Below, piece by piece: positions 2,707 through 37,410 of a stretch of DNA of 64,000 bases. The translations under genes and the position numbers were made by a program. The notes under the pieces were generated by a model. The model was not told the origin of the DNA, ran no database searches, and saw only the letters and a program-made list of their open reading frames with translations. Every line of letters starts with the position of its first letter. The stretch's first letter is position 1. Origin of the DNA: Escherichia phage PECP20; sequence record OQ873415.1; one strand, 5' to 3'.

Positions 2707-2778
2707 AAGTACCTCTTGGCTCAATTCATAGGTCTATTATATCATAATATTTAGAGACCTATCTTAAAGCACGAGATA

Positions 2779-3048
2779 CTATCGGAGCAAACAATAAGCC
2801 TGAAACACTTTTTCCATTAAACGTTTGAACTCATGGATATCGATATAAAGCTCAGTAAGACCGGCATTATAAAGAAAATCTAAAAAGTTCTCATGTGTTT
2901 CGTTATAGTCGCCTTCGTTTAATTGAGATACATGAGTTTCCCAAAAACCGACACCTTTAACAAATGGAAAATACGTAACTTTCATAAAGTTGTCGACGTA
3001 AAATTCGCCCAGCTTTTCTTCAGTTATACTGATTCGAGTTAATTTCAT
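2779..3048 (-). CDS. Hypothetical protein (89 aa)
   Basis: ORF track; ATGA overlap with neighbour. Confidence 0.5.
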   Translation of the reverse strand: MKLTRISITEEKLGEFYVDNFMKVTYFPFVKGVGFWETHVSQLNEGDYNETHENFLDFLYNAGLTELYIDIHEFKRLMEKVFQAYCLLR

Positions 3049-3272
3049 TCTAGTTCCTTTGCTGCAAATAAGGCAGCATCCAATGAATCAAATTGGTCAA
3101 CGAAATCAATATTCAACGCATCGTCAACCGTAGCATATAGCCACCATTGTTTGAATTCGTATTCTAGAATAAATCCAGGACCTTCGATCTGAGGAAGACC
3201 TAGACTATTTGTACCAACTTCGTAACCAGCTAGACGCAGGTCATTAATCAAAGTTTCTGTTAATACGCTCAT
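3045..3272 (-). CDS. Hypothetical protein (75 aa)
   Basis: ORF track. Confidence 0.5.
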   Translation of the reverse strand: MSVLTETLINDLRLAGYEVGTNSLGLPQIEGPGFILEYEFKQWWLYATVDDALNIDFVDQFDSLDAALFAAKELE

Positions 3273-3601
3273 TTTACCGCCTTAACAATTTTAAGGTCAA
3301 CGAATTTTTTCTTACGTTGATTTTTCATACGACGGATAGTCTTTTCAGAGATTTCATGTTTCTGATAAGCTTTAGATTCAACACCAAATGCAGCAACGTC
3401 AAATTCAGAAAGAATATATTGTACTAGAATTTCACGAATAGAATTACGTCCAATTTTCTGGTCGTGTTTTTGCATGATTTCATAAAGACGGAATTCCCAC
3501 GCGTCAAGAACTTGAGGAGTAACAATATTGCCGGATTCCAGAAGAGCAACAACTTTATCGAAAGCGAAAGAATTAACTACGTTTTTGATTTTAGTAGACA
3601 T
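3269..3601 (-). CDS. Hypothetical protein (~110 aa)
   Basis: ORF track; internal ATG preceded by GAGGAAAATAAT. Confidence 0.5.
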   Translation of the reverse strand: MSTKIKNVVNSFAFDKVVALLESGNIVTPQVLDAWEFRLYEIMQKHDQKIGRNSIREILVQYILSEFDVAAFGVESKAYQKHEISEKTIRRMKNQRKKKFVDLKIVKAVK

Positions 3602-3638
3602 ATTATTTTCCTCGGTTATTTTATTATCCAACGAGAGA

Positions 3639-3667
3639 ATTATACTCATCTCTCAAGAGTTTGTATA
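3639..3667 (-). promoter_or_regulatory. T4-type early promoter (-35 TATACA, 17 nt, -10 TATAAT) with the -10 inside a GAGAGA/TCTCTC inverted repeat
   Basis: Read on the minus strand; the ~50-nt element recurs at 33090-33140. Confidence 0.5.
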
Positions 3668-3907
3668 TTATTTTTTAAGCATGAAAAGTAAGTAATTTGT
3701 ATCACGTGGAGTAATATCAACACCCATATCAAAGATGCCTTTATAGATTGGGTATTTGTTTTCGGTTGTATCGAAGCTGAAACTATTTCCATCACAACTA
3801 ACAGTAATAGCATCTGTTAAAATGTCATACTCAATCCTAACAATTGAATTCCCAATTTTAACGTCGAGGTGTTTTTTGAATTTGATAAAATCTAATTCTT
3901 GGGCCAT
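3668..3907 (-). CDS. Hypothetical protein (79 aa)
   Basis: ORF track; GAGGAAAATATC ribosome-binding site upstream. Confidence 0.5.
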   Translation of the reverse strand: MAQELDFIKFKKHLDVKIGNSIVRIEYDILTDAITVSCDGNSFSFDTTENKYPIYKGIFDMGVDITPRDTNYLLFMLKK

Positions 3908-3970
3908 GATATTTTCCTCATTTTAAGACGATAGAAAGATAATAACATGTCTTCCTATCGTTGTACATTA

Positions 3971-4171
3971 TTAACCGAACTTTTTAGCGCCTTTCCAGCC
4001 TTCGTACATAGCTGCACAAGTCAATAGTACAGCGTGCTGGCATTCTTTGTATTTGTAAATCCAGAACCAGCGTAAGAAGTCTTCATCCTCAACGCCGTTG
4101 AGTTTCATATTGGCAAAGAATTCGGCACGTTCTTCACGAAGCTTTTGCGATAACATAGATTCAGGATTCAT
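3971..4171 (-). CDS. Hypothetical protein (~66 aa)
   Basis: ORF track; start set to the first ATG (track start is GTG). Confidence 0.4.
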   Translation of the reverse strand: MNPESMLSQKLREERAEFFANMKLNGVEDEDFLRWFWIYKYKECQHAVLLTCAAMYEGWKGAKKFG

Positions 4172-4302
4172 TTTGTATTCCACGCCCCATTTTCATCGAT
4201 GAACTTAATCCAGTCATTTACAGACCATTTAGTTGTATCACCCTTTGGATTAACATTTAAAGTATATAATCCTTGCTTAAAAAGCATTCGTTTAATATTC
4301 AT
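4168..4302 (-). CDS. Small hypothetical protein (~44 aa)
   Basis: Internal ATG of track ORF 4168..4395 with GAGGAA ribosome-binding site; the upstream part of the track ORF overlaps the next gene. Confidence 0.3.
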   Translation of the reverse strand: MNIKRMLFKQGLYTLNVNPKGDTTKWSVNDWIKFIDENGAWNTK

Positions 4303-4309
4303 AATTTCC

Positions 4310-4603
4310 TCAACTGTAACGATAACATTCGTTAGCTTTACGTTTGGCTTCAGTATGAGAAGTATTATAATCATACTCTTCTTTACTGTAAACATCTTTT
4401 TTCAACTTACGAACCTCTTTGCGGAGTTGTCGATTCATTTCATTCTTGACTTCAGAATCAACACCTTTCATACGTTTCCATTTATCTGAGCGGAAGATGT
4501 TTTCAACCATGTCTTTGTGGCTAACACCGTCAGGAGCTTTACGCTTACCAAAATAGTCGTAATCGCGAACTTTCAAATCTTTACGACGATATGTTTTACC
4601 CAT
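4310..4603 (-). CDS. Hypothetical basic (Lys/Arg-rich) protein (~97 aa)
   Basis: ORF track; internal ATG with GAGGT ribosome-binding site. Confidence 0.45.
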   Translation of the reverse strand: MGKTYRRKDLKVRDYDYFGKRKAPDGVSHKDMVENIFRSDKWKRMKGVDSEVKNEMNRQLRKEVRKLKKDVYSKEEYDYNTSHTEAKRKANECYRYS

Positions 4604-5038: not shown

Positions 5039-5066
5039 TTTGTTTTCCTCTATAGCAGATGGTTTA

Positions 5067-5095
5067 ATCTTAACACATCTATCGAGGATGTAAAC
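5067..5095 (-). promoter_or_regulatory. T4-type early promoter candidate (-35 GTTTAC, -10 TAAGAT)
   Basis: Minus-strand GTTTAC followed 17 nt later by a TAAGAT hexamer. Confidence 0.35.
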
Positions 5096-5175
5096 TGTTT
5101 TATGAAAAATATTTTTGATTTGAGAGGGGCGCAAGGAGATAGTGAAGTGAAGATTCCAATGGATTATATTAGAAA

Positions 5176-5207
5176 TAGGATAAAGAAGACCAGGCGCCGC
5201 CTGGTCA
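5176..5207 (-). terminator. Intrinsic terminator-like hairpin (GACCAGGCG-CCG-CCTGGTC) at the stop of the redoxin gene
   Basis: Palindrome followed by a T-rich tract on the minus strand. Confidence 0.45.
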
Positions 5208-9590: not shown

Positions 9591-9609
9591 TTAAAATATT
9601 CTCGCAGTT
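9588..9609. repeat. 22-bp direct repeat CATTTAAAATATTCTCGCAGTT, copy 1 (gene junction)
   Basis: Exact match to 9903-9924. Confidence 0.8.
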
Positions 9610-9905
9610 TATTGTTCTACCCAGGCATAGGAAACTTCGAAATCAGGACCACCGTATTCCCAGTGATATTCACCAACAGGAATCCAGTCACCGTGCTCGT
9701 TTTCTTCATAGTCCTCAGCCTCAAGGCCAACGAATCGCCATTGGACACCGATGATTCGATTACCCATCATTACTCTAAATTCACCCCATGGATTATCGAT
9801 AGCATATTGGATATCGTTCTTAGCACGAGAACACATTTCTTGATATAACAAAGCTTCTAATTTACCCTGGTCATAAGAGCCCGGGAAAGTTAAATCAATA
9901 CTCAT
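9609..9905 (-). CDS. Hypothetical protein (98 aa), flanked by the 22-bp direct repeats
   Basis: ORF track. Confidence 0.5.
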   Translation of the reverse strand: MSIDLTFPGSYDQGKLEALLYQEMCSRAKNDIQYAIDNPWGEFRVMMGNRIIGVQWRFVGLEAEDYEENEHGDWIPVGEYHWEYGGPDFEVSYAWVEQ

Positions 9906-10571: not shown

Positions 10572-10876
10572 TATAATGTTCTCTCAAATTTGTGGAAGCA
10601 TTTACGGCATTTCAATTTCAAGTTATCAGTGGTCCAGTTAACCAGTTGGACTTGGATAGTTCCACATTCCGGGCATGGATGTTTTGCTGCTGATTTGGCA
10701 GCATTTTCACGTCGTTCAACCATTTTCATTATTTCGTTCCATGCTGGAGGAACGAACTCTTCTTCACCGTGGATTTTATCTCGCTGAACAAATTCAATCT
10801 TTGAACTATCGTCAATAAACTTAACCAAGCCATGATTAGTGCTCATATCAATATCCTCTAAAAGACGTAGTTTCAT
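10571..10876 (-). CDS. Hypothetical protein with C-terminal zinc-ribbon (CPEC...CRKC), 101 aa
   Basis: Cys pairs CPEC and CRKC about 20 aa apart. Confidence 0.5.
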   Translation of the reverse strand: MKLRLLEDIDMSTNHGLVKFIDDSSKIEFVQRDKIHGEEEFVPPAWNEIMKMVERRENAAKSAAKHPCPECGTIQVQLVNWTTDNLKLKCRKCFHKFERTL

Positions 10877-11826
10877 TATAACACCTCAATGGCATTTCGT
10901 AAACCGTCCGCTTTCGCATTCAGAGTTTTTAACGATTTAGTCTGTTCTTTAATCTGGGCTTCGACTTCTTTCAGACGAGATTTGAGATATTCACGTTCTT
11001 CGCTCAAGTTGTCAACTTTTTCTACTTTAGGTTCTTTAATAGTCTTAAGTTTATACTCGTTAGGGTTCTTCAGCTTAATTCGGGTGCGAGAACTGTATAA
11101 CATTGAACCGTTATCTTCGGATTCGTCGAACGTTTCAACAACATCCATAGTCTCTAACAATGTAATAAGTTTATAAGACAATGAACGAACGGTTTTATTA
11201 TGCTTATTAATTTCTTCAGCTTTCATGGTACCGAGATTACGTGAGTAGTAATAAGGAACCTGGATATCAATTGATAATGATGCGTTACCATTACCGGTCG
11301 GTTTGAATACTGCAGTAACCCAATCTTTAACATGAACTTTATTTGTACGACAATCACCGCCCGTGAATAATTTACGAGAATGTTTAAAAAGCATATTCAC
11401 TTGGTTATTGAATTCACAAGCAAATTTATCAGCGAATTTAGTTTCAGGAATGGTAGATAACCAATCAGCCAAATGAGTCTTTTTAACATCATTAACAATA
11501 GTGAATTCAACCAAATCAGTTTTAGATGTCACAGATTTAATAAAGCTCGGTTTCATAAAGTTTTTAATGTTATCGCGAGCTACAGTAGAAGATAATAAAC
11601 GAGAACGTTTGAACCATTGAAGCAGTGTCCCTAATGAATGAGAATACGCATTCTGAGTATCTTTACAGATATGATTTTCTTGACCTGTGTATGTACCAAA
11701 ATCGCGAAGAATACCACTTACTACATCTCGGTGTGGAACATCAAATCCTAGTGCACCAACAGCGCGCTGGGCACGAACGTTAGCGATAAGACCGGCAAAG
11801 TATTCAATGTAATGTGAACGTGTCAT
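10876..11826 (-). CDS. Hypothetical protein (316 aa) with C-terminal coiled coil
   Basis: ORF track; own promoter; no recognisable catalytic motif. Confidence 0.55.
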   Translation of the reverse strand: MTRSHYIEYFAGLIANVRAQRAVGALGFDVPHRDVVSGILRDFGTYTGQENHICKDTQNAYSHSLGTLLQWFKRSRLLSSTVARDNIKNFMKPSFIKSVTSKTDLVEFTIVNDVKKTHLADWLSTIPETKFADKFACEFNNQVNMLFKHSRKLFTGGDCRTNKVHVKDWVTAVFKPTGNGNASLSIDIQVPYYYSRNLGTMKAEEINKHNKTVRSLSYKLITLLETMDVVETFDESEDNGSMLYSSRTRIKLKNPNEYKLKTIKEPKVEKVDNLSEEREYLKSRLKEVEAQIKEQTKSLKTLNAKADGLRNAIEVL

Positions 11827-11854: not shown

Positions 11855-11883
11855 ATTATACTCCAACCATCCTTGGTTGTAAA
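11855..11883 (-). promoter_or_regulatory. T4-type early promoter (-35 TTTACA, 17 nt, -10 TATAAT) inside a 30-bp repeat
   Basis: The 30-mer ATTTATTATACTCCAACCATCCTTGGTTGT (11851-11880) is identical to 12871-12900. Confidence 0.55.
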
Positions 11884-11888
11884 CCGTT

Positions 11889-12848
11889 TTATGATTTTAA
11901 TGCATTCATTGCATTAAAAAGTTTAGAGTACTGCAACTGGAGATTCGTTACAACACTTTGAGCATCACGAAGCTTAGCTTGTGCTTTGTCAAGTTCAACG
12001 GACAGTTGGTCTGCAGTAGCCTTGATTTGGTTGTAATGATAATCTTCGGCCGGAAGAAGGTCATTAGAAACATTTAGTTTTACTGCCGACAGTTTGCACA
12101 CATTTGGCAAACCTTTAAACATACCGGGTTGTGTCGGAGAATATGCGCTTAGAACCTCTGCATTACCGACTGGTGTTGCTGTGATATTGCCTTCGAACGT
12201 TGCATTTTCCTTTTTAAGATTTTGATAGTATTCAGAGTCTTTGTGCCACCATGGCGCAGGAACCTTTTTACCAATAGATACACGAGCCTGGATAGCGATA
12301 TGGCCCTTATTCTTGATAGGGTCGATAATATTAAGCTCACGAGAATAAATTGCTTTAATCTGGTGGATATTATCACCTAAAACTTCTAACGCTTGGTGGA
12401 ATACACGAGCAACGTTATCGTTCTTAGGTTTATACGTGAGAGTGAACTCGTTCTCGCTGATAACCATGATTTCCAACTTATCGTAAGTATATTTCAAATG
12501 TTTCATGTTAATTGCTTGAGGACGAATACGAGAAGCAATGGCCATCAGATTGTTAAGGTTATTCCGGAACTGCTTAGCGAAATATTGTCCTTCACCGCCA
12601 ATACAAAAATTACGAAGTTTCTGTTTGGCTAATAAACGGCTGAACTCACCATTTTTAATGAACTCTTTAACGGGCGTGTTAGTAACACATTCAAATTGAG
12701 TAAACATACGAGAAGTAATCCCATAATACGAACAGACTTCCTCAATCTCTTCAGGAGTTTTTACAGGCATACGGATAGGATTAGGTCCTGGAGTATATGC
12801 GTTCGAGGTAAATTCTTTGATAAGTTCTCTACGTGTAATAAAAGCCAT
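11889..12848 (-). CDS. Hypothetical protein (319 aa) with C-terminal coiled coil
   Basis: ORF track; own promoter. Confidence 0.55.
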   Translation of the reverse strand: MAFITRRELIKEFTSNAYTPGPNPIRMPVKTPEEIEEVCSYYGITSRMFTQFECVTNTPVKEFIKNGEFSRLLAKQKLRNFCIGGEGQYFAKQFRNNLNNLMAIASRIRPQAINMKHLKYTYDKLEIMVISENEFTLTYKPKNDNVARVFHQALEVLGDNIHQIKAIYSRELNIIDPIKNKGHIAIQARVSIGKKVPAPWWHKDSEYYQNLKKENATFEGNITATPVGNAEVLSAYSPTQPGMFKGLPNVCKLSAVKLNVSNDLLPAEDYHYNQIKATADQLSVELDKAQAKLRDAQSVVTNLQLQYSKLFNAMNALKS

Positions 12849-12874
12849 TTTATATTCCTCATGTTGAAAAATTT

Positions 12875-12903
12875 ATTATACTCCAACCATCCTTGGTTGT
12901 ACA
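12875..12903 (-). promoter_or_regulatory. T4-type early promoter (-35 TGTACA, 17 nt, -10 TATAAT) inside the second copy of the 30-bp repeat
   Basis: Identical 30-mer at 12871-12900. Confidence 0.55.
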
Positions 12904-13899
12904 TCATTCCTTAAGAAGTTTTACTACTTGAATAAGATTAGCTCGTTCTGTTTTATTTTTACCATTTAAGCCTGCTAATCGTGAGATTTCATCGTCAGTC
13001 TGTTGAATAGTTACATTAAGTTCGTTAATCAAAGCTTCAAAGTATTTGATTTGCTCAGCATGTTTTGATTCAAATTTCTGAACCGGAATAACGTCTTGGT
13101 TCAGTTCATCAATAAGGTCTTTAAGAGCATCTTCTTGGTTGATATCGTATTCAACTTCTTTTATTTCTTCAACGAACTCGTTTTTATATCTAACATCTTT
13201 TAGTCCTGGTGCCGGTCCTGAAATCTCTTCTTTAAGAGTACAAACATACCCAATACGGTATTGGATACCGTCTCGCTTGATATCAACTTCGTCGATAAAT
13301 CCGCAATGTTTAAGACCAGAGCCGATTAGGTCAAAATATCCTTGACGTCGTCCTTCAAACGTTACACGAACTACTAAGACAGTTTTGCCAGCGACCTTTT
13401 GAAGCTCACATTTATAAAAGTTCGTTGAACCTGAATAACGTGGATGAGTTTTAAAGTTCATCTGACGATCTAGGCCCATTTGTAAACGTGCTGTTACGGC
13501 CATAAAACGTGTTTGGTTCTCGTTAAGATGAGCAACAATCCATTTCAAAGGCATTTTACCCTGTTCACGACCGAACAAATCAGTACATCCTAGATTACGC
13601 AGGATGTTGTTAGAGTTAATCATCGACAGAACGTTAAGTTTATTCAGCGCGCTGAAGATTCCATCAGCCATTGATTTTCCATAACCTTTACACGCTTTAA
13701 TAAGTGCTCGCGGCAGATTAGTATAGATTTCAGACGGCATATGAAAATCAAATTTACTAGTCAGTAATTGATGAACTTGGATAGCAATTTGCTCGTAATT
13801 AAGTGCTCTGCGATCATTATGGTCTTTAAACCACACTTTAATCTGTGAAGCACATAAACCGTTAATTTCATGTTTTACCGCATCAGATGTAATGCTCAT
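12904..13899 (-). CDS. Hypothetical protein (331 aa) with C-terminal coiled coil
   Basis: ORF track; related CCNTCCTTGG promoter element upstream. Confidence 0.55.
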   Translation of the reverse strand: MSITSDAVKHEINGLCASQIKVWFKDHNDRRALNYEQIAIQVHQLLTSKFDFHMPSEIYTNLPRALIKACKGYGKSMADGIFSALNKLNVLSMINSNNILRNLGCTDLFGREQGKMPLKWIVAHLNENQTRFMAVTARLQMGLDRQMNFKTHPRYSGSTNFYKCELQKVAGKTVLVVRVTFEGRRQGYFDLIGSGLKHCGFIDEVDIKRDGIQYRIGYVCTLKEEISGPAPGLKDVRYKNEFVEEIKEVEYDINQEDALKDLIDELNQDVIPVQKFESKHAEQIKYFEALINELNVTIQQTDDEISRLAGLNGKNKTERANLIQVVKLLKE

Positions 13900-13961
13900 A
13901 ACTATTTCCTCAGATTGAATTGGAACTCAAAACCATTATAACCCGTCCTTGGGTAAAGCGT

Positions 13962-14489
13962 TTATGCGTGAACCGTCTTTAAACGTTCTTCAAATTTCCG
14001 AAGAGTACTAATACGTTCTGCTTTCTGTTTTGTATAGTTTGCAATACGTTCTGAAGTGAGAGCGTATCGTTCGTTTACTGTTTCTTTCATGAAGTCAGGG
14101 ATTTCACGAGAAGCTTTAATTTCATCAAACTTGTCGAGTACTGCCTGGTCTTCAGCGATTAAATTTTCATACATCTCGATATCTTTCTTGATAAACTCGA
14201 TATCTTCCTGGGTTACTTTGGATAAACGAGACGCTTTATCCTTTTTGTACTGCTCGTTAGTTTCACGAGACCAGAATAATGTACGTTTTTTGTTAGTGTT
14301 TTTGTAGACTTCCACAATTCCAACTGAATCGATGATAACAATCCAATTCCAGCGAGATTTGAAAATCTGACCTCCGTCCACGGTAATCTCGTTATCATAA
14401 GCAACGTCATTAAAGAACTTGCTTTGTGCTTCAGATTTAAATTTACCGTCGTTATAATTTACCAGGTTGAAAATATCTTTAGCGTTCAT
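13962..14489 (-). CDS. Hypothetical protein (175 aa)
   Basis: ORF track; GGAGG ribosome-binding site; early promoter upstream. Confidence 0.55.
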   Translation of the reverse strand: MNAKDIFNLVNYNDGKFKSEAQSKFFNDVAYDNEITVDGGQIFKSRWNWIVIIDSVGIVEVYKNTNKKRTLFWSRETNEQYKKDKASRLSKVTQEDIEFIKKDIEMYENLIAEDQAVLDKFDEIKASREIPDFMKETVNERYALTSERIANYTKQKAERISTLRKFEERLKTVHA

Positions 14490-14516
14490 GTTTTACCTCC
14501 AGTAGTTGATAGGTCT

Positions 14517-14545
14517 ATAATAACATAACCATAGACCTTGTAAAC
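14517..14545 (-). promoter_or_regulatory. T4-type early promoter (GTTTACA ... TATTAT) with AGGTCTAT/ATAGACCT inverted repeat in the spacer
   Basis: Minus-strand GTTGTTTACA, 17 nt, TATTAT. Confidence 0.5.
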
Positions 14546-15954: not shown

Positions 15955-15992
15955 TTTATTCTCCAATTTACTCATTTCGTTTCGATAGGTCT

Positions 15993-16020
15993 ATAGTATC
16001 ATATCCTAAAAGCATGTACA
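15993..16020 (-). promoter_or_regulatory. T4-type early promoter candidate (TGTACA ... TACTAT); also carries a TGCTTTTA MotA-box-like sequence
   Basis: Minus-strand read. Confidence 0.4.
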
Positions 16021-16041
16021 CTACTTTTTAAAAATATTTTG

Positions 16042-16069
16042 ACCCCCTAAAGGGACCCGAAGGTCCCCA
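16042..16069 (-). repeat. Dual-hairpin element ACCCCCTAAAGGGACCCGAAGGTCCCC (possible terminator half of a promoter/stem-loop cassette), copy 1
   Basis: GC-rich palindromes; near-identical element at 34001-34026. Confidence 0.5.
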
Positions 16070-18364: not shown

Positions 18365-18376
18365 ATTATTCACCAA

Positions 18377-18544: not shown

Positions 18545-18680
18545 TTTTACCATACTCGTTTCAATAAGATTCACTATGCCGTTTACCATGTTATAAGTAA
18601 ACATCGGATAATTGTATTGTACTACAACATAAGCGATAAGCAAAAGTTTCATTTTGTTCTCCGTTCGTTTTGGTAGGACT

Positions 18681-18710
18681 ACTATAACATAGTCCTACCA
18701 AGATGTAAAC
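18681..18710 (-). promoter_or_regulatory. T4-type early promoter (GTTTAC ... TATAGT) with perfect 10-bp inverted repeat GGTAGGACTA/TAGTCCTACC around the -10
   Basis: Minus-strand read. Confidence 0.5.
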
Positions 18711-19103: not shown

Positions 19104-19130
19104 AACGTTCTCCTCTAGTAAGTAAGGACT

Positions 19131-19159
19131 ACTATAACACATCTCAAGGAGAAGTAAAC
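19131..19159 (-). promoter_or_regulatory. T4-type early promoter (GTTTAC, 17 nt, TATAGT)
   Basis: Minus strand: GTTTACTTCTCCTTGAGATGTGTTATAGT. Confidence 0.55.
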
Positions 19160-22288: not shown

Positions 22289-22296
22289 GTTTACCT

Positions 22297-22755: not shown

Positions 22756-22783
22756 TTTGATTTCTCCTCTAGTTGACAGGTCT

Positions 22784-22812
22784 ATAGTAACACAACTAGA
22801 GGAGAAGTAAAC
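22784..22812 (-). promoter_or_regulatory. T4-type early promoter (GTTTAC, 17 nt, TACTAT) with 11-bp inverted repeat TCCTCTAGTTG/CAACTAGAGGA around the -10
   Basis: Minus-strand read; upstream of regB. Confidence 0.55.
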
Positions 22813-23953: not shown

Positions 23954-23959
23954 ATAACC

Positions 23960-25306: not shown

Positions 25307-25313
25307 TTTTTCC

Positions 25314-25727: not shown

Positions 25728-25754
25728 AATTTCCTCCAAGTAGTTGATGAATGT

Positions 25755-25784
25755 ATAGTATCAAAACCCTTGGAGGAAGTAAAC
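25755..25784 (-). promoter_or_regulatory. T4-type early promoter (GTTTAC, 18 nt, TACTAT) upstream of denV
   Basis: Minus-strand read. Confidence 0.5.
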
Positions 25785-25785
25785 A

Positions 25786-26067
25786 CTATTTTTCTGAAGC
25801 GCCTGAAATATATTTTTCAAGACGTTGTTTCATCAGCGAGCCGTTCTTAGCGATTTCTTCTGGTTTATCGCACATACGCAACAAGGCTTCAAGCTTAGCG
25901 ATATCGCTGGTACGTTCAAATTTGCGAGTATCTATCTTACTAGCAAGTTCAGAAATACGTGCTAATAGACTTTCAGCTTCAACCAAAGCTGCACCTAGCT
26001 TAGTTGCAAATGTGTCAGTAGCTTCGTTAAGAATAGATTCTGATAAAAATTCACTATATGTTTTCAT
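25786..26067 (-). CDS. Internal-protein-like head protein with capsid-targeting N-terminus ([10 protein letters not shown]...)
   Basis: Capsid-targeting consensus; start ATG overlaps the e stop (ATGA). Confidence 0.55.
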
Positions 26068-26586: not shown

Positions 26587-27045
26587 TTATAGGATGGTAG
26601 TGAGCACCTTATATAATGATTTGCCCATTACATATTCCCATTGAGAAGGTTTAATTAAAGCGAATGCATCAAATTCAGGAATCTGTCGTCCGTCTGGGAA
26701 TGTATGATAGGAATTACAAACACTGTTTCTGAATTGCTCGTGCTCTACAGGGATGGTATATAGGAACAGATGAATATTCTTATTATCTGAGTAATGATGT
26801 TCACCTAGGTCTTTCAGGAAGACAGGGTCATATTGTGTAAACCCAGTTTCTTCTTCGCATTCACGAATAGCGGCTTCAATAGGAGATTCGCCAGGTTCGA
26901 CATGGTCTTTAGGAATATCCCACCGATGAGCTAAAGAACCTTTAGGACGAGAACCAGTTACACGACCCATGAATAACTCTTTATCTTTTGTCATGAAGAT
27001 AATACCGGCTGATAGTTCTTTCACTTTATTTTTCTTACTCATCAT
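26587..27045 (-). CDS. nudE: Nudix hydrolase NudE
   Basis: Nudix box ...GESPIEAAIRECEEETG; 152 aa. Confidence 0.85.
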   Translation of the reverse strand: MMSKKNKVKELSAGIIFMTKDKELFMGRVTGSRPKGSLAHRWDIPKDHVEPGESPIEAAIRECEEETGFTQYDPVFLKDLGEHHYSDNKNIHLFLYTIPVEHEQFRNSVCNSYHTFPDGRQIPEFDAFALIKPSQWEYVMGKSLYKVLTTIL

Positions 27046-27271
27046 ATCGGTCCCATGATTTGGCCATCAATTCGGACATAAATTCTTCAATGCGCGTTTC
27101 TTTAGATGGACTTTCACTATTAGAGACCGCAAGTTTGTAATCTGCAATAGGACAGAACATATCAAGGTCCATATTAAGATCGTCTTTGATTTTTTCTTCT
27201 GACACATCTTTATCATACGTGTACAGATAACTATCGCATGATTCTGATTTAATGTAAATTGCTATACTCAT
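27035..27271 (-). CDS. Hypothetical acidic protein (~78 aa)
   Basis: ORF track; internal ATG with AGGAAT ribosome-binding site. Confidence 0.4.
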   Translation of the reverse strand: MSIAIYIKSESCDSYLYTYDKDVSEEKIKDDLNMDLDMFCPIADYKLAVSNSESPSKETRIEEFMSELMAKSWDRYDE

Positions 27272-28752: not shown

Positions 28753-28780
28753 AATATTCTCCTCATGTTTTAATAGGACT

Positions 28781-28809
28781 ACTATAACATAGTCCTATCA
28801 GTTTGTACA
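28781..28809 (-). promoter_or_regulatory. T4-type early promoter (TGTACA, 17 nt, TATAGT) with inverted repeat ATAGGACTA/TAGTCCTAT around the -10
   Basis: Minus-strand read. Confidence 0.5.
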
Positions 28810-28810
28810 C

Positions 28811-29011
28811 TTATTTTGACATTTCTTCGATGTCACGACGATACCCATCACGAACTTCACGAAGAGCTTCAAGGCCACACATAGGCTCGATACCAGTAAT
28901 GTGAACTTGATTAATCTGATACTCTACATCTTCTAACTGAGCGAAAACATAACGACGTTCTGCTGCACAACCAGGTTTAGCTTTACCGAAACGTTTATTC
29001 AAAGTAGTCAT
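28811..29011 (-). CDS. Hypothetical protein (~66 aa)
   Basis: ORF track, internal ATG. Confidence 0.4.
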   Translation of the reverse strand: MTTLNKRFGKAKPGCAAERRYVFAQLEDVEYQINQVHITGIEPMCGLEALREVRDGYRRDIEEMSK

Positions 29012-29049
29012 TTTTATATCTCCATTCACTCATTTGTTTTGATAGGTCT

Positions 29050-29079
29050 ATAGTATCAACAACTACAGACCTTGTAAAC
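29050..29079 (-). promoter_or_regulatory. T4-type early promoter (GTTTAC ... TACTAT) with AGGTCT/AGACCT inverted repeat
   Basis: Minus-strand read. Confidence 0.45.
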
Positions 29080-30328: not shown

Positions 30329-30344
30329 TTGTTTTGATAGGACT

Positions 30345-30374
30345 ACTATAACATAGCCCTATCTTGTTGTAAAC
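30345..30374 (-). promoter_or_regulatory. T4-type early promoter (GTTTAC ... TATAGT) with inverted repeat ATAGGGCTA/TAGTCCTAT
   Basis: Minus-strand read. Confidence 0.5.
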
Positions 30375-30585: not shown

Positions 30586-30813
30586 TTAGCAAGACATAGA
30601 GGAAGAGAACCAGAAACCTTTGCCTTCCGGAATTCCATAATCGTTACGGATCCAGCCATATTCATCATATTCTGAACTGGTCGCCGGAATATATCGGTTA
30701 AGTCCTTCAGCATACACATGAAAATACTCGCCGGTTTTATCAGCTAATTGTTGGCCTTCACAGATTAGTGCTCGAATTTGGTCTTCAATTTCTTTAACGG
30801 TTTTAGTGGTCAT
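30586..30813 (-). CDS. Small acidic protein, C-terminal ...GFWFSSSMSC (SSSxxC-tail family member 2)
   Basis: Conserved tail; junction TGCTAAGGAAACAATATG. Confidence 0.5.
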   Translation of the reverse strand: MTTKTVKEIEDQIRALICEGQQLADKTGEYFHVYAEGLNRYIPATSSEYDEYGWIRNDYGIPEGKGFWFSSSMSC

Positions 30814-30822
30814 TTTATTTCC

Positions 30823-31116
30823 TTAACATATTTGAGAAGAGGAGATCCATACACCGGAAGTAACGATACCATTTTCGTCAACTTCACCGCCATAGTTTTC
30901 AATTTCATCGCGCATCCAGCGACTACATTCATAACCAACAGGATAGTAAGTACGACCTGAACCATATTCACCTACATCAAATGAAACACCATACTTATCT
31001 GCGATAATAGTAGCTTCATTCTCGATATGGTCTTGAGCACGAAGAAGTTTGCTGATTGCTTCTTCTGCAGATTTAGCGTCATTGTATTCAGGGATTACGA
31101 TTTCAATTTTACTCAT
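30823..31116 (-). CDS. Small acidic protein, C-terminal ...GVWISSSQIC (SSSxxC-tail family member 3)
   Basis: Conserved tail; junction TGTTAAGGAAATAAAATG. Confidence 0.5.
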   Translation of the reverse strand: MSKIEIVIPEYNDAKSAEEAISKLLRAQDHIENEATIIADKYGVSFDVGEYGSGRTYYPVGYECSRWMRDEIENYGGEVDENGIVTSGVWISSSQIC

Positions 31117-31846: not shown

Positions 31847-32438
31847 ATTCTCTACATTCCATAATAAATTGCTCAAGGATTAAATTGTTAGTGAAATTAG
31901 GACTAACAACCATAGTTTCATAAAGCGCATCAATAGCACTTAAAGCATCAACTCTTTTAAGCAAAGGCTTGCCTTCATACATAGTTTCAGAATCGATGAT
32001 TAACGTAAAGTAATATTTTTTATTATCGACTAGAACTTCTGTATCGATATAAAACATATTAGACCTCAGAAGCTTATCTCTAAAACCATAATAATCTTCA
32101 GAGCGTTCGCTGATATATTCCCATTCAGTGTTTAAACAACAAACAGACCACGTAGGAGCAACGAAATCAGTGAATCTAATATCATGGTCTGCAACTAGTT
32201 TAGCAATAGCTCCGATATCATGAATCATAATACCTGGGGCTAATAAAGATTTTCTGCTATGGCTAGCCGTTTTCTCGGTGGTCTCATAAGAAGACGACCA
32301 GTACCATTTACGTCCGGTTGCAACATATCGTAATGAATCAACTAAAGACGTAGGTGGATTTACCTTATCTCGGAACTCTTCGAACATTGAGTCAATATCA
32401 TTATTTTGGTTTCGCATGTTAGCTCCTTTATTATCCAA
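31815..32438 (-). CDS. Hypothetical protein (207 aa) with internal ...EQFIMECREYVK motif
   Basis: ORF track; start uncertain. Confidence 0.45.
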   Translation of the reverse strand: MDNKGANMRNQNNDIDSMFEEFRDKVNPPTSLVDSLRYVATGRKWYWSSSYETTEKTASHSRKSLLAPGIMIHDIGAIAKLVADHDIRFTDFVAPTWSVCCLNTEWEYISERSEDYYGFRDKLLRSNMFYIDTEVLVDNKKYYFTLIIDSETMYEGKPLLKRVDALSAIDALYETMVVSPNFTNNLILEQFIMECREYVKANPIHAK

Positions 32439-32466
32439 AAGGAGGACCGGAGTCCTCCGTATTATT

Positions 32467-33060
32467 TTATTTCAAAGAGTTAATATATTCTTGTACATCA
32501 GCAGAAGTGGTTTCGACACCAGCTGGAGTGCCATTGAACGTTTCAACACGAGTCAGAGTGTCTTCGATATCAACCTTAGTCAGTGCAGCGATTTCAATTA
32601 CATCGTCAGCGGTAGAGATACCAAGGGCATTGGCTGCTCGAGTTTCACGAATGTATTCGAGTTTGATTGCCAGGTTCTGACGAGCATCGTCAAGTTCAAC
32701 CACCTTACGAGCAATTTCAATTCGCATAGCGGCATACCCGTCAGCTTTTGTATTAAGTTGTTCGGCAGTTCGACGATACAGAAGACCAAGCTTAGCATGC
32801 ATGGTAACATCTTGTCCTTCAGCCAGGAGTTTACGAATTTCACGTTCCTTAGAAGCGGCTTGCTTGTTCTTTTCATTAACAAGTTCGCGAATACGTTTTT
32901 CTTCATTAATAGATTTAACAGAAGCCGTTTTTAGTTCTTTGATTTGGGTAATCAACTTATCTGCAGCTGCGTTATACTGTTCTTCGACAGTCAGATTTTT
33001 AGCCATGGCAGTACCCAGTTTAGTGCGAATGAATTCAACAAGTTTCTTCAGAGTGTTCAT
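32467..33060 (-). CDS. Coiled-coil protein (197 aa)
   Basis: Long heptad-like charged helices; no catalytic motif. Confidence 0.5.
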
Positions 33061-33102
33061 ATTATTACCTTTTCAATTAGTGGGTTTATTATCCATGAGA
33101 GC

Positions 33103-33131
33103 ATTATACTCTGCTCTCAAGAGTTTGTAAA
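33103..33131 (-). promoter_or_regulatory. T4-type early promoter (-35 TTTACA, 17 nt, -10 TATAAT) with GAGAGC/GCTCTC inverted repeat around the -10
   Basis: Second copy of the ~50-nt element at 3615-3670. Confidence 0.55.
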
Positions 33132-33388: not shown

Positions 33389-33417
33389 ATAGTAACACCA
33401 TCCTTGGCGTTTGTACA
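33389..33417 (-). promoter_or_regulatory. T4-type early promoter (TGTACA, 17 nt, TACTAT)
   Basis: Minus-strand read; contains the CCATCCTTGG core. Confidence 0.45.
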
Positions 33418-33921: not shown

Positions 33922-33950
33922 AACATTTTCCTTTGTGGTTGATATGTCTT

Positions 33951-33979
33951 ATAGTATCATGTCCTTAGAAGAAGTAAAC
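33951..33979 (-). promoter_or_regulatory. T4-type early promoter (GTTTAC, 17 nt, TACTAT)
   Basis: Minus strand: GTTTACTTCTTCTAAGGACATGATACTAT. Confidence 0.5.
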
Positions 33980-34000
33980 AACTTTTTCAGTAAGTTGTAG

Positions 34001-34026
34001 ACCCCCTAATGGGGACCGAAGTCCCC
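34001..34026 (-). repeat. Dual-hairpin element ACCCCCTAATGGGGACCGAAGTCCCC, copy 2
   Basis: Near-identical to 16042-16069; directly upstream of an early promoter. Confidence 0.5.
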
Positions 34027-34658: not shown

Positions 34659-34693
34659 TGATGGTCCTTAGAAAGTAGGTTTATTGTTTACTA

Positions 34694-34701
34694 TATTTAT
34701 A
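34694..34701 (-). promoter_or_regulatory. T4 late promoter TATAAATA for the internal-protein gene
   Basis: Exact octamer on the minus strand about 35 nt upstream of the ATG. Confidence 0.6.
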
Positions 34702-34702
34702 C

Positions 34703-34731
34703 AAAAAAGCCCCAACCTTTCGGAAGGGGCT
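34703..34731 (-). terminator. Intrinsic terminator (GCCCC stem, then TTTTTTG) ending the tRNA/small-RNA transcription unit
   Basis: Hairpin plus U-run on the minus strand. Confidence 0.6.
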
Positions 34732-34740
34732 ATATACCTT

Positions 34741-34900
34741 GTCGGGGTTTCCACCTACTAGGTAAGTGTTTGTACGAAACGCCGGGATTCGAACCCGGTT
34801 ATTAAGCAGTTGACGCTACTCAATATTTTTAAAAGGCCATATCTCTACCATATCCGAACGTCCCGTCAAAAACGCTACTCGGCTTACGGCAAAGATATTT
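34741..34900 (-). ncRNA. tRNA-like element with canonical T-arm (CCGGG-TTCGAAT-CCCGG) but no canonical acceptor stem; possible small stable RNA or tRNA remnant
   Basis: T-loop consensus at complement(34781..34799); I could not fold a full cloverleaf; sits in a 330-nt non-coding stretch. Confidence 0.3.
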
Positions 34901-35033
34901 CCTCGAATCGATAATTCTGTGCGCCGTTTCTGCTGTGATGTAAGGGGATATTAACGAATCATAAAGATTTATTAAGACCAGTCCCTACTCAGGGAACATC
35001 AGTCCGACGACTTGCCGGTAGCGACCCGGCTTC

Positions 35034-35396: not shown

Positions 35397-35473
35397 TGGT
35401 CGAGACAGAAGGATTCTAACCTTCAACCTACGGATTAGAAGTCCGTTGCTCCATACAATTGAGCTATGCCTCG
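35397..35473 (-). tRNA. tRNA-Arg (anticodon TCT), CCA encoded
   Basis: Hand fold: acceptor CGAGGCA/TGTCTCG, D-arm GCTC...GAGC, anticodon stem ACGGA/TCCGT with loop CTTCTAA, T-stem GAAGG/CCTTC, discriminator A plus CCA. Confidence 0.75.
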
Positions 35474-35479: not shown

Positions 35480-35553
35480 TGGCCCAGACCAGATTCGAAC
35501 TGGTAACCTTTCCCTTATGAGGGGACTGCTGCTAACCATTGAGCTACAGGGCC
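35480..35553 (-). tRNA. tRNA with anticodon CAT (Met, or Ile if lysidine-modified)
   Basis: Hand fold: acceptor GGCCCTG/CTGGGCC (one U-U mismatch), anticodon loop CTCATAA, T-arm ACCAG-TTCGAAT-CTGGT; no encoded CCA. Confidence 0.7.
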
Positions 35554-35632: not shown

Positions 35633-36148
35633 TTAAAGCAAATCAATCATTTTAACGGTTGGCAAAACGATTTCTTCTTCAATATAAGCAAATTCGACAC
35701 GTTCAACTACACGCAAGAAATCGTAATCATAGTATTCAGAAGCATAGCCAAGAATATCAATAAGTCCTTGAGATATCTCATCGCCTTTCACAAAGAACAG
35801 GTCGAATACGCGGGCTTCGTCTTCTTCAGATTTATCACCAAGGTCTACTTCGATGCCAAAGACCTTTTTAATAAATTCCGGTTGGAGTTGGTCTGAGAAC
35901 AGTCCTTCAACCAGATATTCGTAGATAATAAGCGAGCAACGACCGAATGGTGTATTACCGCAATAACGTTCGGCTTTGGTGCTAGAATGACGGCTCTTAA
36001 ATTTCTTCAAGAGATATTTAAACTGTTGGAGCTCATGCTCTTCCACTTCAAACAATGTTTTGGTTTTATAGTTGTCACCATCACTTTCATAGGTAGTGAC
36101 ATCAATTACGTAGCCCTTAGGAATTGTACTGCCTAATCGAATATTCAT
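35633..36148 (-). CDS. Hypothetical protein (171 aa)
   Basis: ORF track. Confidence 0.5.
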   Translation of the reverse strand: MNIRLGSTIPKGYVIDVTTYESDGDNYKTKTLFEVEEHELQQFKYLLKKFKSRHSSTKAERYCGNTPFGRCSLIIYEYLVEGLFSDQLQPEFIKKVFGIEVDLGDKSEEDEARVFDLFFVKGDEISQGLIDILGYASEYYDYDFLRVVERVEFAYIEEEIVLPTVKMIDLL

Positions 36149-36152
36149 TTAA

Positions 36153-36443
36153 TCACCGTACCATATTAATGTAATTATATTCAATGCAACGTAATTTCAA
36201 AGGATTCTTGAAAATATCATATTCAAGAGGGCCTTTTTCTGTTTCAATAAAGAAATCAAAGTTAACTGTGTTAAATTTATCATCTTCACAGAGTAATTTA
36301 ACCTGTGAAGACGAACGGTCAATGTAAACCTTTTCAACTTCAAAATATGTTAAAATGCCATAATCATCGATCAATGCTTTAGCTGCACGTTGATCGCTTT
36401 CGTATCCATTCTCGACAGATTTTACTTTAGCATAAAGAATCAT
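36153..36443 (-). CDS. Hypothetical protein (96 aa)
   Basis: ORF track. Confidence 0.45.
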   Translation of the reverse strand: MILYAKVKSVENGYESDQRAAKALIDDYGILTYFEVEKVYIDRSSSQVKLLCEDDKFNTVNFDFFIETEKGPLEYDIFKNPLKLRCIEYNYINMVR

Positions 36444-36802
36444 GAGTGTTCCACCACTTCAAAAGTATGTGCATTTACAATCTGGTACCAGTCAAAATTT
36501 TCTTCAGCATTTTTGTAGATTTCACGAAGAGCTTCAGCAGTTTTTCCTGTAGCAACAAGATCGTCAATACCGCCAAGAGGATAACAGTCGTAACCAGCAA
36601 ACAGAAGGAAATTAATAGTTTCTGTAGGTTCTGGATGCAGTGTACCATTGTCATCGACTACTTCAAAGAACATATAACCAGGCGATTTAGATTTAATCCA
36701 AGCCCATGCTTGAGCTGCTGAATCAAATGGTCTGCGTATCAAACGACAATCAGGGTCTTTAGAAGGATTTGCTTCAAAATCTGCATATACATGATATTTC
36801 AT
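36440..36802 (-). CDS. Hypothetical protein (120 aa)
   Basis: ORF track. Confidence 0.45.
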   Translation of the reverse strand: MKYHVYADFEANPSKDPDCRLIRRPFDSAAQAWAWIKSKSPGYMFFEVVDDNGTLHPEPTETINFLLFAGYDCYPLGGIDDLVATGKTAEALREIYKNAEENFDWYQIVNAHTFEVVEHS

Positions 36803-37009
36803 TTACTCACCTTTTGCAATTTTATCCATAACGATAGCGATTAAGCCGATTAGAAATGCTACTACCAATGAGATAGAGTTTTCAGTTGTTGTCAGTAGTC
36901 CACAAATGAATCCTACAAACATCGAAAAGCTAAAAGCCATTGAAGCAATTACTACAGCAACATTACGAATCAGTTCAGCGCGTTTCATTTTATTTCTCCA
37001 TTTACTCAT
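36803..37009 (-). CDS. Small membrane protein (68 aa, two transmembrane helices)
   Basis: Hydrophobic segments. Confidence 0.45.
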   Translation of the reverse strand: MSKWRNKMKRAELIRNVAVVIASMAFSFSMFVGFICGLLTTTENSISLVVAFLIGLIAIVMDKIAKGE

Positions 37010-37026
37010 TTTGTTTTGATAGGACT

Positions 37027-37056
37027 ATTATAACATAGTCCTATCGGCATGTAAAC
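37027..37056 (-). promoter_or_regulatory. T4-type early promoter (-35 TTTACA, 17 nt, -10 TATAAT) with inverted repeat ATAGGACTA/TAGTCCTAT around the -10
   Basis: Minus-strand read. Confidence 0.55.
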
Positions 37057-37059
37057 TAC

Positions 37060-37347
37060 TTACAGAAGAGTTTTTGCAATAATTTTAAGCTGAGCTACAG
37101 AAATGTGCTTAGCTTTAAACAGTGCAGTCTCTTCAGCCGGAGAGATAACAATAGTAGCGCCATCTTTCTTAGCAGACCATCCGTCCCCTAAGTAAACAGT
37201 ACCTTTTACTTCTTCACCGTCAACCAGACTAATCATTGGTTTACCCTCACGTCCTTTATTTGTTTTAATAACTTCAGAAGTAAGGGATGCTTCGGTCAGA
37301 GTAGAAACGTTAGCAACAGGTGATATAAATTCTTTATAGGTTTTCAT
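37060..37347 (-). CDS. Internal protein I-like head protein (95 aa) with capsid-targeting N-terminus MKTYKEFISP...
   Basis: Capsid-targeting consensus; same length and position (next to 57B) as T4 IPI. Confidence 0.6.
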   Translation of the reverse strand: MKTYKEFISPVANVSTLTEASLTSEVIKTNKGREGKPMISLVDGEEVKGTVYLGDGWSAKKDGATIVISPAEETALFKAKHISVAQLKIIAKTLL

Positions 37348-37380
37348 TTTATTTCCTTGGGGCTGTTTATTTGATAGGAT

Positions 37381-37410
37381 GATAGTAACACACCATCATC
37401 TTTATGTAAA
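37381..37410 (-). promoter_or_regulatory. T4-type early promoter (GTTTAC ... TACTAT)
   Basis: Minus-strand read. Confidence 0.45.

Follow-up and report, generated by a model that had tools for sequence, protein, structure and literature searches.

Cassettes of the promoter-early stem-loop class between the minus-strand genes of Escherichia phage PECP20, a Mosigvirus

Introduction

Promoter-early stem-loop (PeSL) cassettes were defined in the Krischviruses RB49 and phi1 (Arbiol 2010, PMC2839356). In these phages, a cassette follows a stop codon in an A/T-rich stretch and contains a sigma-70-type -35 and -10, a stem-loop that lies between the -35 and -10 or overlaps the -10 and includes G-T pairs, a Shine-Dalgarno (SD) sequence, and an ATG. 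Many dispersed direct copies are found in the variable early regions, where they coincide with insertions and deletions (indels) of open reading frames (ORFs), and inverse PCR showed circles or deletions between adjacent cassettes during infection. PeSLs were later extended to T4 and PST, and PeSLs together with middle promoter/stem-loops (PmSLs) to KVP40 and nt-1; the authors proposed that probably all T4-like phages have them (Comeau 2014, PMC4122927). Here we describe promoter/hairpin cassettes in a 64,000-nucleotide (nt) stretch of Escherichia phage PECP20 (sequence record OQ873415.1), referred to as the window. They are a real, non-random, and functionally constrained feature and belong to the PeSL class.

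A resemblance to PeSLs had been proposed in a first-pass annotation of the window, and it was borne out for each property of the RB49 and phi1 cassettes that can be followed in sequence. These are an early promoter with an A/T-rich upstream region, a stem-loop with G-T pairs in or next to the promoter, a position between a stop codon and the SD and ATG of the next gene, dispersed copies in the same orientation in variable early regions, and indels that end at the cassettes. The window cassettes differ from those of RB49 and phi1 in belonging to a Mosigvirus, in their -35 (GTTTACA or TGTACA, compared to TTGACA), and in their stems, which are AT-rich and heterogeneous rather than polyG/polyC and lack a U-tract, making termination doubtful. 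The cassettes of T4 and PST share the promoter consensus TTTACW-N17-TAYWAT and the association with indels in hyperplastic regions. Their stem-loops lie just upstream of the promoter (PMC4122927), whereas most helices in the window are embedded in it and an upstream hairpin is found at only two sites (16020 and 33978). No paper combining PeSLs with RB69 was found in the literature library that was searched.

A second related system is translation masking. The T4 genes e, soc, 49, and I-TevI have translation-masking hairpins (reviewed in PMC3014915), and the T4 orthologue of one of the sites described below, the regB site, has been described as a typical early promoter (PMC3014915).

Results and discussion

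T4-type early promoters in the minus-strand gaps

The window phage is a Mosigvirus (RB69-like T-even phage; Straboviridae, Tevenvirinae), according to the taxonomy lines of several matching GenBank coliphages. The window is 96-98.5% identical to CAU_ECP01, TH12, and SA79RD, and bases 18000-24000 match about 160 GenBank coliphages at 96-98.5% identity.

All minus-strand intergenic gaps were extracted in the sense orientation and inspected directly. A recurrent layout was found, in which a stop codon is followed, usually after 0-5 nt, by GTTTACA or TGTACA, a 16-17-nt spacer that often ends in TG, the -10 TAYWRT, about 25 nt of leader, and then the SD and ATG. The pattern TTAC-N17/18-TAYWRT had 24 matches, compared to 4.65 +/- 2.24 in dinucleotide shuffles (0 of 100 shuffles reached 24), and 18 of them fell within 4.3-38.6 kb on the minus strand. 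For the GTAC variant, there were 7 matches with 2.7 expected. By pattern, putative T4-type early promoters are about 5-fold above chance and specific to strand and region. There were 21 promoter-like sites directly upstream of minus-strand ORF starts, with the upstream stop codon 0-5 nt from the -35 at 13 of them. Individual cassettes are named below by a single number, the site position on the minus strand. A generic sigma-70 consensus scan was dropped in favor of the T4-type pattern since it was non-discriminating (65 matches compared to 63.7, no enrichment); the top minus-strand matches of a permissive version were the cassette sites.

A search of the whole TH12 genome with the pattern gave 57 matches. 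Of these, 52 shared one strand, and the late structural block had none. Downstream of 45 of the 57 there was an SD with a start codon, and a stem of at least 8 bp was found in 20 of these 45; by this census, a repeat is present at about half of the early promoters. A Tequatrovirus had an embedded hairpin at 8 of 15 promoters in the corresponding region and, therefore, the feature is not specific to Mosigvirus.

A conserved (A/T)CCTATCAA motif surrounds the predicted +1, which was placed by rule 7 nt after the -10, at 13 of the 21 sites (e.g. 37018-37026, 29044-29052, and 14511-14519). It is also found at promoters that have no complementary 5' arm, and the 3' arm of the repeat is built on it. 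The free positions of the spacer appear to have evolved to complement this motif, possibly one of the "additional regions of consensus" reported for T4 early promoters. Separately, three cassettes (15952-16003, 29009-29060, and 36986-37037) share a leader of about 25 nt, AAAATGAGTAAATGGAGAAATAAAATG, which places an upstream ATG and GGAG right before the true start of three unrelated ORFs. A tiny upstream ORF and a target site for RegB/S1 are two possible identities of this leader.

Inverted repeats at the promoters exceed chance

The repeats were tested with 23 promoter-like sites, consisting of the gene-proximal sites then known and three sites inside ORFs. The -10 was kept fixed, and the spacer and downstream parts were shuffled separately 1000 times. 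A perfect Watson-Crick stem of at least 6 bp was found at 13 of 23 sites, compared to a mean of 3.8 and a maximum of 9 in the shuffles. Stems of at least 8 bp were found at 8 of 23 sites, a length reached by 1.5% of random 47-mers. The summed stem length was 152 in the 23 sites and 107 +/- 4.5 in the shuffles. When G.U pairs were allowed, 12 sites had stems of 8-14 bp. Folding of 13 cassettes with ViennaRNA gave free energies of -10.5 to -20.6 kcal/mol, with z at or below -3.3 in 11 of the 13. Hairpin repeats at these promoters are real and far beyond chance.

The first-pass annotation had listed at least 18 sites with perfect repeats of 6-11 bp. This number is reached for promoter-like sites (21) but not for perfect repeats (13); the latter rise to about 16 only if G.U pairs, arms that overlap the -35, and the 3667 site are all included. 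It had also given four sites the same arms, ATAGGACTA and TAGTCCTAT. These are correct for 28809 and 37055, but the actual arms at 18709 are GTAGGACTA and TAGTCCTAC, and 30373 has a G.T pair (ATAGGGCTA). Its example of a longer repeat, at 22764-22802, was exact.

The repeats could in principle be a chance or neutral by-product of an AT-rich, partly self-complementary promoter consensus that has been copied around the genome. A TATA-type -10 is partly self-complementary, several of the cassettes are paralogous copies so that the counts are not independent, and the generic sigma-70 scan found no excess. The shuffles described above, however, preserved the -10 and still fell far short of the observed number of sites. 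There are also at least six unrelated arm sequences, both compensatory changes and changes that give only G.U pairs (see below), and a helix at regB that has been kept across about seven genera with different arm sequences. Chance is already contradicted by the shuffle, regB, and G.U results, and we consider it extremely improbable.

Three hairpin geometries

The hairpins fall into three geometries that recur in the window and across the whole TH12 genome. In class I, the spacer holds the 5' arm, while the 3' arm begins at the end of the -10 and reaches about +3, so that the SD is untouched; the loop is often GTTATA, which is the TGn/-10 region. Class II is a 6-7-bp hairpin with an AGGA loop that lies entirely within the spacer. 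In class III, the 5' arm comes directly after the -35 and is an anti-SD (TTCTCC...) that pairs with the SD (GGAGAA), leaving the -10 and the predicted start inside a loop of 17-28 nt. The arms are unrelated between families but always complementary (TAGGACTA, AGGTCTGTAGT, TGAGAGCA, GATGATGGTG, ACGATAGGAAGA, and TCTCCTCTAGTTG). Family A (TAGGACTA-N8-TAGTCCTA) is near-identical at four sites. No cassette matched a curated covariance model when positions 1-42000 were searched against Rfam at the gathering score.

The predicted start always falls within the 3' arm or the loop. Therefore, RNA from a cassette's own promoter is predicted to be unable to form the helix, and only read-through RNA could form it. 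We think it probable that these elements are PeSL-type composite cassettes of Mosigvirus, in which a promoter within a hairpin also encodes a read-through RNA helix and, secondarily, serves as a crossover point. Each cassette would act as a strong sigma-70 early promoter, with an A-rich stretch before the -35, GTTTACA or TGTACA as the -35, a spacer of 16-17 nt that mostly ends in TG, and TAYWRT as the -10, all packed into a gap of about 55 nt between a stop codon and the SD of the next gene. The promoter positions that are free of sequence constraint, in the spacer and from the -10 to +1, would be used for building the hairpin. If only the read-through RNA folds, the hairpin would distinguish transcripts by their origin. 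The class I helices might then protect or delimit read-through RNA, most likely as a 3'-end or RNase barrier or as a weak attenuator. In class III, the SD would be masked in read-through RNA unless the helix is opened by a ribosome that terminates 6-8 nt upstream, and the structures point strongly to an SD that would be free in the promoter-proximal early RNA.

The helices probably act in RNA rather than DNA

A pattern scan of IMG/VR found 12 loci, too few for covariation, and GenBank relatives were used instead. The long helices of nine relatives, one Tequatrovirus, and the complete TH12 genome were pooled with those of the window. Their internal single mismatches were 11 G.U on the sense strand, 0 A.C, and 3 of other types (binomial p = 5e-4). 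In the window, the summed stem length with G.U pairs allowed was 199 for the sense strand compared to 168 for the antisense strand, and the summed folding energy was -250 kcal/mol compared to -213 kcal/mol. Among orthologue substitutions, about 15 transitions retained pairing and about 7 gave A.C, a count that is by itself only suggestive. From these comparisons, we conclude that the helices appear to be selected in the sense-strand RNA.

Another explanation is that the repeats work at the DNA level, either as palindromic operators for a phage regulator or as supercoil-driven cruciforms that hide the -10, and that they aid the shut-off of early promoters. In 1988, Horwitz and Loeb reportedly found that engineered promoters with a palindrome between the -35 and -10 could be repressed by cruciform extrusion. 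The repeats in the window always cover or abut the -10, which is an ideal position for repression, and the near identity of the four family A sites would suit an operator. The shut-off mechanism of early promoters has been stated to be unknown and to be independent of AsiA and ModA (PMC3014915, PMC2988021). However, the arms differ completely between families, so there is no common operator, and no half-site was found that is shared by all promoters. Since the arms are unrelated but always complementary, it is probably the structure, more than a protein half-site, that has been kept. A mismatch that is G.T on one strand of a cruciform is an A.C mispair on the other, and a symmetric protein site would not tolerate it; the restriction of paired mismatches to G.U on the sense strand therefore makes a cruciform or operator unlikely. 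Loops of 17-28 nt in class III also disfavor cruciform extrusion, and the repeat is present at only about half of the early promoters. We regard a function in DNA as very improbable.

A predicted SD-masking subclass that includes regB and denV

Four cassettes belong to class III: those before regB (22811), denV (25783), an ORF of 59 amino acids (aa; 19158), and a 60-aa ORF (5094). The probability that the SD is unpaired was calculated from the partition function for read-through RNA and for RNA from the predicted start of the cassette's own promoter. It was 0.00-0.01 in read-through RNA and 0.24-0.88 in own-promoter RNA. The values were 0.00 and 0.58 for regB, 0.00 and 0.24 for denV, 0.00 and 0.66 for the 60-aa ORF, and 0.01 and 0.65 for the 59-aa ORF. 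A class I site showed no difference (0.60 and 0.56).

The regB leader was then taken from eleven other genera. A MAFFT alignment left the arms out of register and was not used for counting pairs; instead, the helices were compared one sequence at a time. Besides Mosigvirus, the arrangement was found in Tequatro-, Gelderland-, Dhaka-, and Winklervirus as a single helix and in Karam- and Jiaodavirus as an outer SD helix with an inner hairpin, making seven genera in total. The distal arms vary yet remain complementary (TAGTTG/CAACTA, TTGACTG/CAGTTAA, TTTATG/CATAAA, TGTAG/CTACA, and ATTTG/CAAAT). The leader of Marfavirus has a class I hairpin, and no clear equivalent was found in the regB leaders of Gaprivervirus P479, Serratia phage 4S, Krischvirus JSE, and Aeromonas phage 31.

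At regB and denV, only 0-2 nt separate the upstream stop codon from the -35 and, thus, a terminating ribosome would reach the base of the helix. Translational coupling to the upstream ORF would therefore be an equally good reading of the modeled structure as masking. As in the T4 e, soc, 49, and I-TevI hairpins, the class III SD is predicted to be buried in the long RNA and free in a shorter RNA from an internal promoter. The internal promoter of the classic T4 cases is late (or middle), and premature early expression is prevented. Since class III has an early promoter inside the helix, the reverse effect would be expected: translation would be confined to the first minutes or favored then, or it would be coupled to that of the upstream ORF. 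Neither regB nor denV is among the examples of masking hairpins given in the T4 review (PMC3014915).

The cassette hairpins do not resemble canonical terminators

The function proposed for PeSL hairpins is termination or attenuation, by which each early unit would be insulated from transcription that comes from upstream. In support of this function, one GC-rich RB49 PeSL stem-loop reduced lacZ read-through as strongly as rrnB T1 (Arbiol 2010, PMC2839356). The helices in the window are stable (-10 to -21 kcal/mol) and are predicted to form only in read-through RNA. In addition, the annotation of SA79RD has a "rho-independent terminator (WebGeSTer)" overlapping a "T4 early promoter" at these sites (e.g. 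16482-16526, 27043-27101, and 40373-40418 in SA79RD coordinates). On the other hand, all 14 cassette hairpins examined lack a U-tract, with 0-3 T in the 8 nt after the stem, and none passes a hairpin-plus-T-run rule. Their stems are AT-rich with 3-6 GC pairs. Five canonical terminators of the window (1159-1233, 5150-5207, 19160-19207, 21340-21404, and 32420-32469) have 5-6 T, so the phage does use such terminators, in some cases directly upstream of a cassette (19158 and 5094). Since they have no U-tract, the cassettes are not canonical terminators, and the SA79RD terminator labels are probably artefacts of the hairpin. Termination by the cassette hairpins would be possible but is not the best reading of their sequences, and we consider the insulating function unlikely.

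A role as a barrier or stabilizer in polycistronic RNA would be at least as likely as termination. Like the 3' barriers of the repetitive extragenic palindromic (REP) type, the cassette hairpins have no U-tracts and lie between cistrons of polycistronic mRNAs. Tuerk and colleagues are said to have described C(UUCG)G hairpins in such intercistronic regions of T4 in 1988, and the same likeness applies to these. The difference is that class I helices overlap a promoter and that the predicted local start excludes the helix from the local transcript. Hairpins of the C(UUCG)G type occur upstream of the 16020 and 33978 promoters. The first-pass annotation had described a dual GC-rich hairpin at these two places (16042-16069 and 34001-34026); each place has just one hairpin, with a C(UUCG)G tetraloop, and a GGGGGTC run after it.

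As a side observation, two terminators (19166-19199 and 34699-34732; AGCCCC...GGGGCTTTTT) are 88% identical and 15.5 kb apart. Thus, terminators are dispersed repeats here as well.

Cassettes mark sites of gene gain and loss

Synteny breakpoints were located with chained blastn alignments of the window to nine relatives of 88-98% identity. A breakpoint in at least one relative was found at 17 of 20 cassette junctions and at 29 of 69 other gene junctions (Fisher p = 8e-4). The boundaries of gene content therefore coincide with the cassettes, as the PeSL model predicts; the first-pass annotation had proposed this comparison as a test. When the comparison was limited to junctions whose intergenic spacer was 25 nt or longer, the numbers were 17 of 19 and 8 of 22 (p = 1e-3). 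A null from sampling random junctions was uninformative since the sample was nearly the whole set, and the Fisher tests were relied on. Cassettes mark the places where related phages gained or lost small genes. The further claim that they bracket most accessory genes does not hold, as there are about 21 cassettes for about 90 genes and only 6-7 of the 19 units between cassettes consist of a single ORF.

Four indels correspond to the loss of precisely one unit flanked by two cassettes. Three of them are in ESCO47 (3668-3961, 11881-12875, and 18711-19125), and the fourth, 28810-29073, is in seven phages. In all four, the single cassette of the shorter genome is a hybrid that matches the upstream cassette up to the -35 hexamer (or through a shared 30-nt core) and the downstream cassette after it. 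In the 11883/12903 hybrid, the overlap is an identical core of 27-30 nt. In the 2-38 kb interval, a repeat finder identified the cassettes as the largest families of dispersed direct repeats, among them one with 8 copies of 48 nt and one with 4 copies of 87 nt. Being the main direct repeats among otherwise unrelated small genes, they would, as a secondary effect, serve as crossover points for the gain or loss of half-cassette, ORF, half-cassette units. The hybrid junctions agree with the gene-shuffling part of the first-pass annotation, which had likened the cassettes to mobile ones; transposition is unsupported, as no variable segment was found at a second locus.

Two other origins were considered and rejected. 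The five ORFs of about 320 aa at 10.9-17.4 kb have no blastp similarity to each other, so their tandem duplication is not behind the likeness of the cassettes. Translocation of the variable ORFs within the genome was rejected since no second copy was found in the TH12 genome or the window.

Several points weigh against the composite cassette reading. A convincing hairpin is lacking at about one third of the promoter sites, so a hairpin is not obligatory, and 33978, 16020, 10903, 11883, and 12903 are weak, with only 6-7 bp. The start sites, on which the exclusion of the helix from local transcripts depends, were placed by rule, and the orthologue count given above has little weight alone. With regard to recombination, no cassette lies at either end of about half of the events (1162-1444, 8931, 9609-9890, 20742-20942, 30593-30880, and the tRNA region), and the site of recombination in the internal-protein genes is their conserved N-terminal leader. 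Three of the four hybrids have no homology at the switch point beyond the -35 hexamer of about 7 nt. The link between breakpoints and cassettes could partly come from a tolerance for insertions at the boundaries of transcription units rather than from favored recombination.

These last points lead to an explanation in which the link with gene content is not causal. The cassettes would mark tolerant boundaries between transcription units, and the joining would occur by ordinary illegitimate or microhomology recombination. Besides the events with no cassette and the short hexamer homology, the lack of a variable segment at a second locus favors it. However, the enrichment holds among spacers of at least 25 nt, and both ends of the four unit indels fall in register inside cassettes so that a functional hybrid promoter/hairpin is predicted to be regenerated. 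The 27-30-nt overlap in the 11883/12903 hybrid also speaks against it. We take a non-causal link to be possible, though somewhat doubtful, and prefer to see the composite cassettes as secondary crossover points.

Positions and features of the individual sites

The individual sites are listed in Table 1.

Table 1. Promoter/hairpin cassettes, related promoter sites, and tRNA genes of the window. Fold z is from the folding of each cassette; masking of the SD is predicted.
Positions	Strand	Element	Promoter and repeat	Fold z	Variation and other features
2728..2768	-	Cassette before gene 55 (late sigma factor)	8-bp stem ATAGGTCT/AGACCTAT around the -10 region	-1.7 (weak)	
3632..3667	-	Class I (3667)	-35 TATACA, -10 TATAAT; stem TGAGAGA/TCTCTCG		Paralogue of 33131 cassette (90% identity over 49 nt, compensating arm changes); lower end of 3668-3961 indel in ESCO47
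3928..3967	-	Class I	12-bp stem ACGATAGGAAGA/TCTTTCTATCGT	-3.7	One internal G.U pair, G-C in relatives
5046..5094	-	Class III, 60-aa ORF (5094)	Outer helix UCCUC/GAGGA masks SD; inner 6-bp hairpin	-4.2	432-nt insertion in ESCO47
10862..10903	-	Promoter-like site (10903)	TTTACG-17-TATAAT at upstream ORF 3' end; weak stem only		
11855..11883	-	Class II (11883)	CAACCA-agga-TGGTTG entirely in spacer		Lower end of 993-nt unit deletion in ESCO47
12875..12903	-	Class II (12903)			88% identity to 11883 cassette, flanking genes unrelated
13897..13964	-	Degraded class II copy	TTTACC-11 nt-TATAAT (read directly)		Decayed copy of 11883/12903 cassette, about 6 nt gone from spacer
14511..14544	-	Class I	11-bp stem AGGTCTATGGT/ATTATAGACCT including two G.U pairs	-2.1	
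15983..16069	-	Promoter (16020)	TGTACA-16-TACTAT, almost no internal repeat; C(UUCG)G hairpin before it		Breakpoints at 16014 and 16075; paralogous to 33978 cassette (about 100 nt, 78% identity)
18670..18709	-	Class I, family A (18709)	13-bp stem TTGGTAGGACTAT/GTAGTCCTACCAA	-5.9	Compensatory GC>AT change in LNA2; G.T intermediate in p000y
19109..19158	-	Class III, 59-aa ORF (19158)	UCUCCU right after -35 pairs with SD AGGAGA		Canonical terminator 19166-19199 directly upstream
22762..22811	-	Class III before regB (22811)	14-bp helix TTCTCCTCTAGTTG/CAACTAGAGGAGAA around -10 and predicted start	-4.7	
25731..25783	-	Class III before denV (25783)	10-bp helix TTCCTCCAAG/CTTGGAGGAA masks SD	-5.4	Substitutions in two relatives retain pairing as G.U
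28771..28809	-	Class I, family A (28809)	12-bp stem	-4.3	Lower end of 262-nt ORF unit missing from 7 relatives
29044..29078	-	Class I (29078)	11-bp stem AGGTCTGTAGT/ACTATAGACCT, one internal G.U	-4.3	Upper end of the same 262-nt unit
30336..30373	-	Class I, family A (30373)	11-bp stem	-5.0	Internal G.U pair is A-U in LNA2
33096..33131	-	Class I (33131)	8-bp stem TGAGAGCA/TGCTCTCA	-3.6	291-nt insertion in SA79RD
33389..33417	-	Class II	7-bp spacer hairpin AACGCCA-agga-TGGTGTT		182-nt insertion in six relatives
33951..34026	-	Promoter (33978)	TTTACT-16-TACTAT, no internal repeat; C(UUCG)G hairpin before it	-2.6	Replacement breakpoints at 33927-33985
37018..37055	-	Class I, family A (37055)	Perfect 11-bp stem	-7.9	385-nt insertion at 3' edge in TH12 and LF82-5
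37378..37410	-	Class I before ipI	10-bp stem GATGATGGTG/TACTATCATC holds whole -10	-3.3	
35397-35473	-	tRNA Arg(tct)			
35480-35553	-	tRNA Met(cat)			

The site before gene 55 stands apart from the others. A perfect MotA-box-like TGCTTTA at 2765-2771 overlaps its -35 position, and it may be a middle promoter/stem-loop instead of an early one. In that case, the site (2728-2771) would correspond to the PmSLs of KVP40 and nt-1. The degraded class II copy, whose spacer is too short for a sigma-70 promoter, is presumably dead as a promoter and resembles the "half PeSLs" known from T4 and PST.

Every gene from about 140 to 40860 is on the minus strand, and plus-strand baseplate genes follow. The minus-strand genes include 47, 55, nrdG/D, 49, nrdC, tk, vs, regB, ipII, denV, e, nudE, the two tRNA genes, ipI, 57A, 1, 3, 2, and 4. 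The two tRNAs were the sole matches in the Rfam search described above. Relatives have 2 to 10 tRNAs at this locus (ten in p000y), so that the tRNA cluster varies as well, and several breakpoints without a cassette lie within it. Upstream of the tRNAs, 375 nt (34659-35033) contain no ORF and end in a canonical terminator. This stretch includes a tRNA T-arm-like sequence, GGTTCGAATCC, and neither ARAGORN nor Rfam gave a call for it. Possible identities are a decayed tRNA and a small stable RNA comparable to the species C and D RNAs of T4.

Two kinds of variation elsewhere in the window involve other sequences. The 5' coding leader of the internal-protein genes (MKTYQEF...) is repeated at 25277-25320, 26038-26067, and 37325-37359, and the breakpoints at 24843-25314 and 37325 fall in this leader, making it a second kind of recombination substrate. 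Phage ChristianSchoenbein has a 676-nt insertion between genes 2 and 4 (its positions 43534-44184, corresponding to 40411/40442 in the window) with a putative homing endonuclease, an indel whose mechanism is unrelated to the cassettes.

Implications

These findings do not overturn the current understanding of T4 biology. For annotation, they mean that automated terminator calls at such cassettes are probably wrong. For phage engineering, units of about 50 nt are natural "landing pads" for swapping small genes. The PeSL concept is extended to the RB69-like genus, with quantitative tests that the original PeSL papers lacked: junction statistics, hybrid cassettes, and strand-specific G.U evidence. 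The proposed mechanism is also revised, as the helices look like RNA elements on read-through transcripts and not like canonical terminators.

The expression of regB and denV may depend on the promoter from which their RNA originates. More tentatively, and with considerable doubt, the promoter within a hairpin might be a general T-even device for discriminating transcripts by origin, with a masking subclass that confines or couples translation. If this is true, the nuclease RegB, DenV, and some small ORF products would be made freely only from their own early promoters in the first minutes of infection. From longer RNAs, all of these products would be made only when the helix is opened by a ribosome that terminates 6-8 nt upstream. 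Such gating would then be the mirror image of the classic masking of T4 lysozyme.

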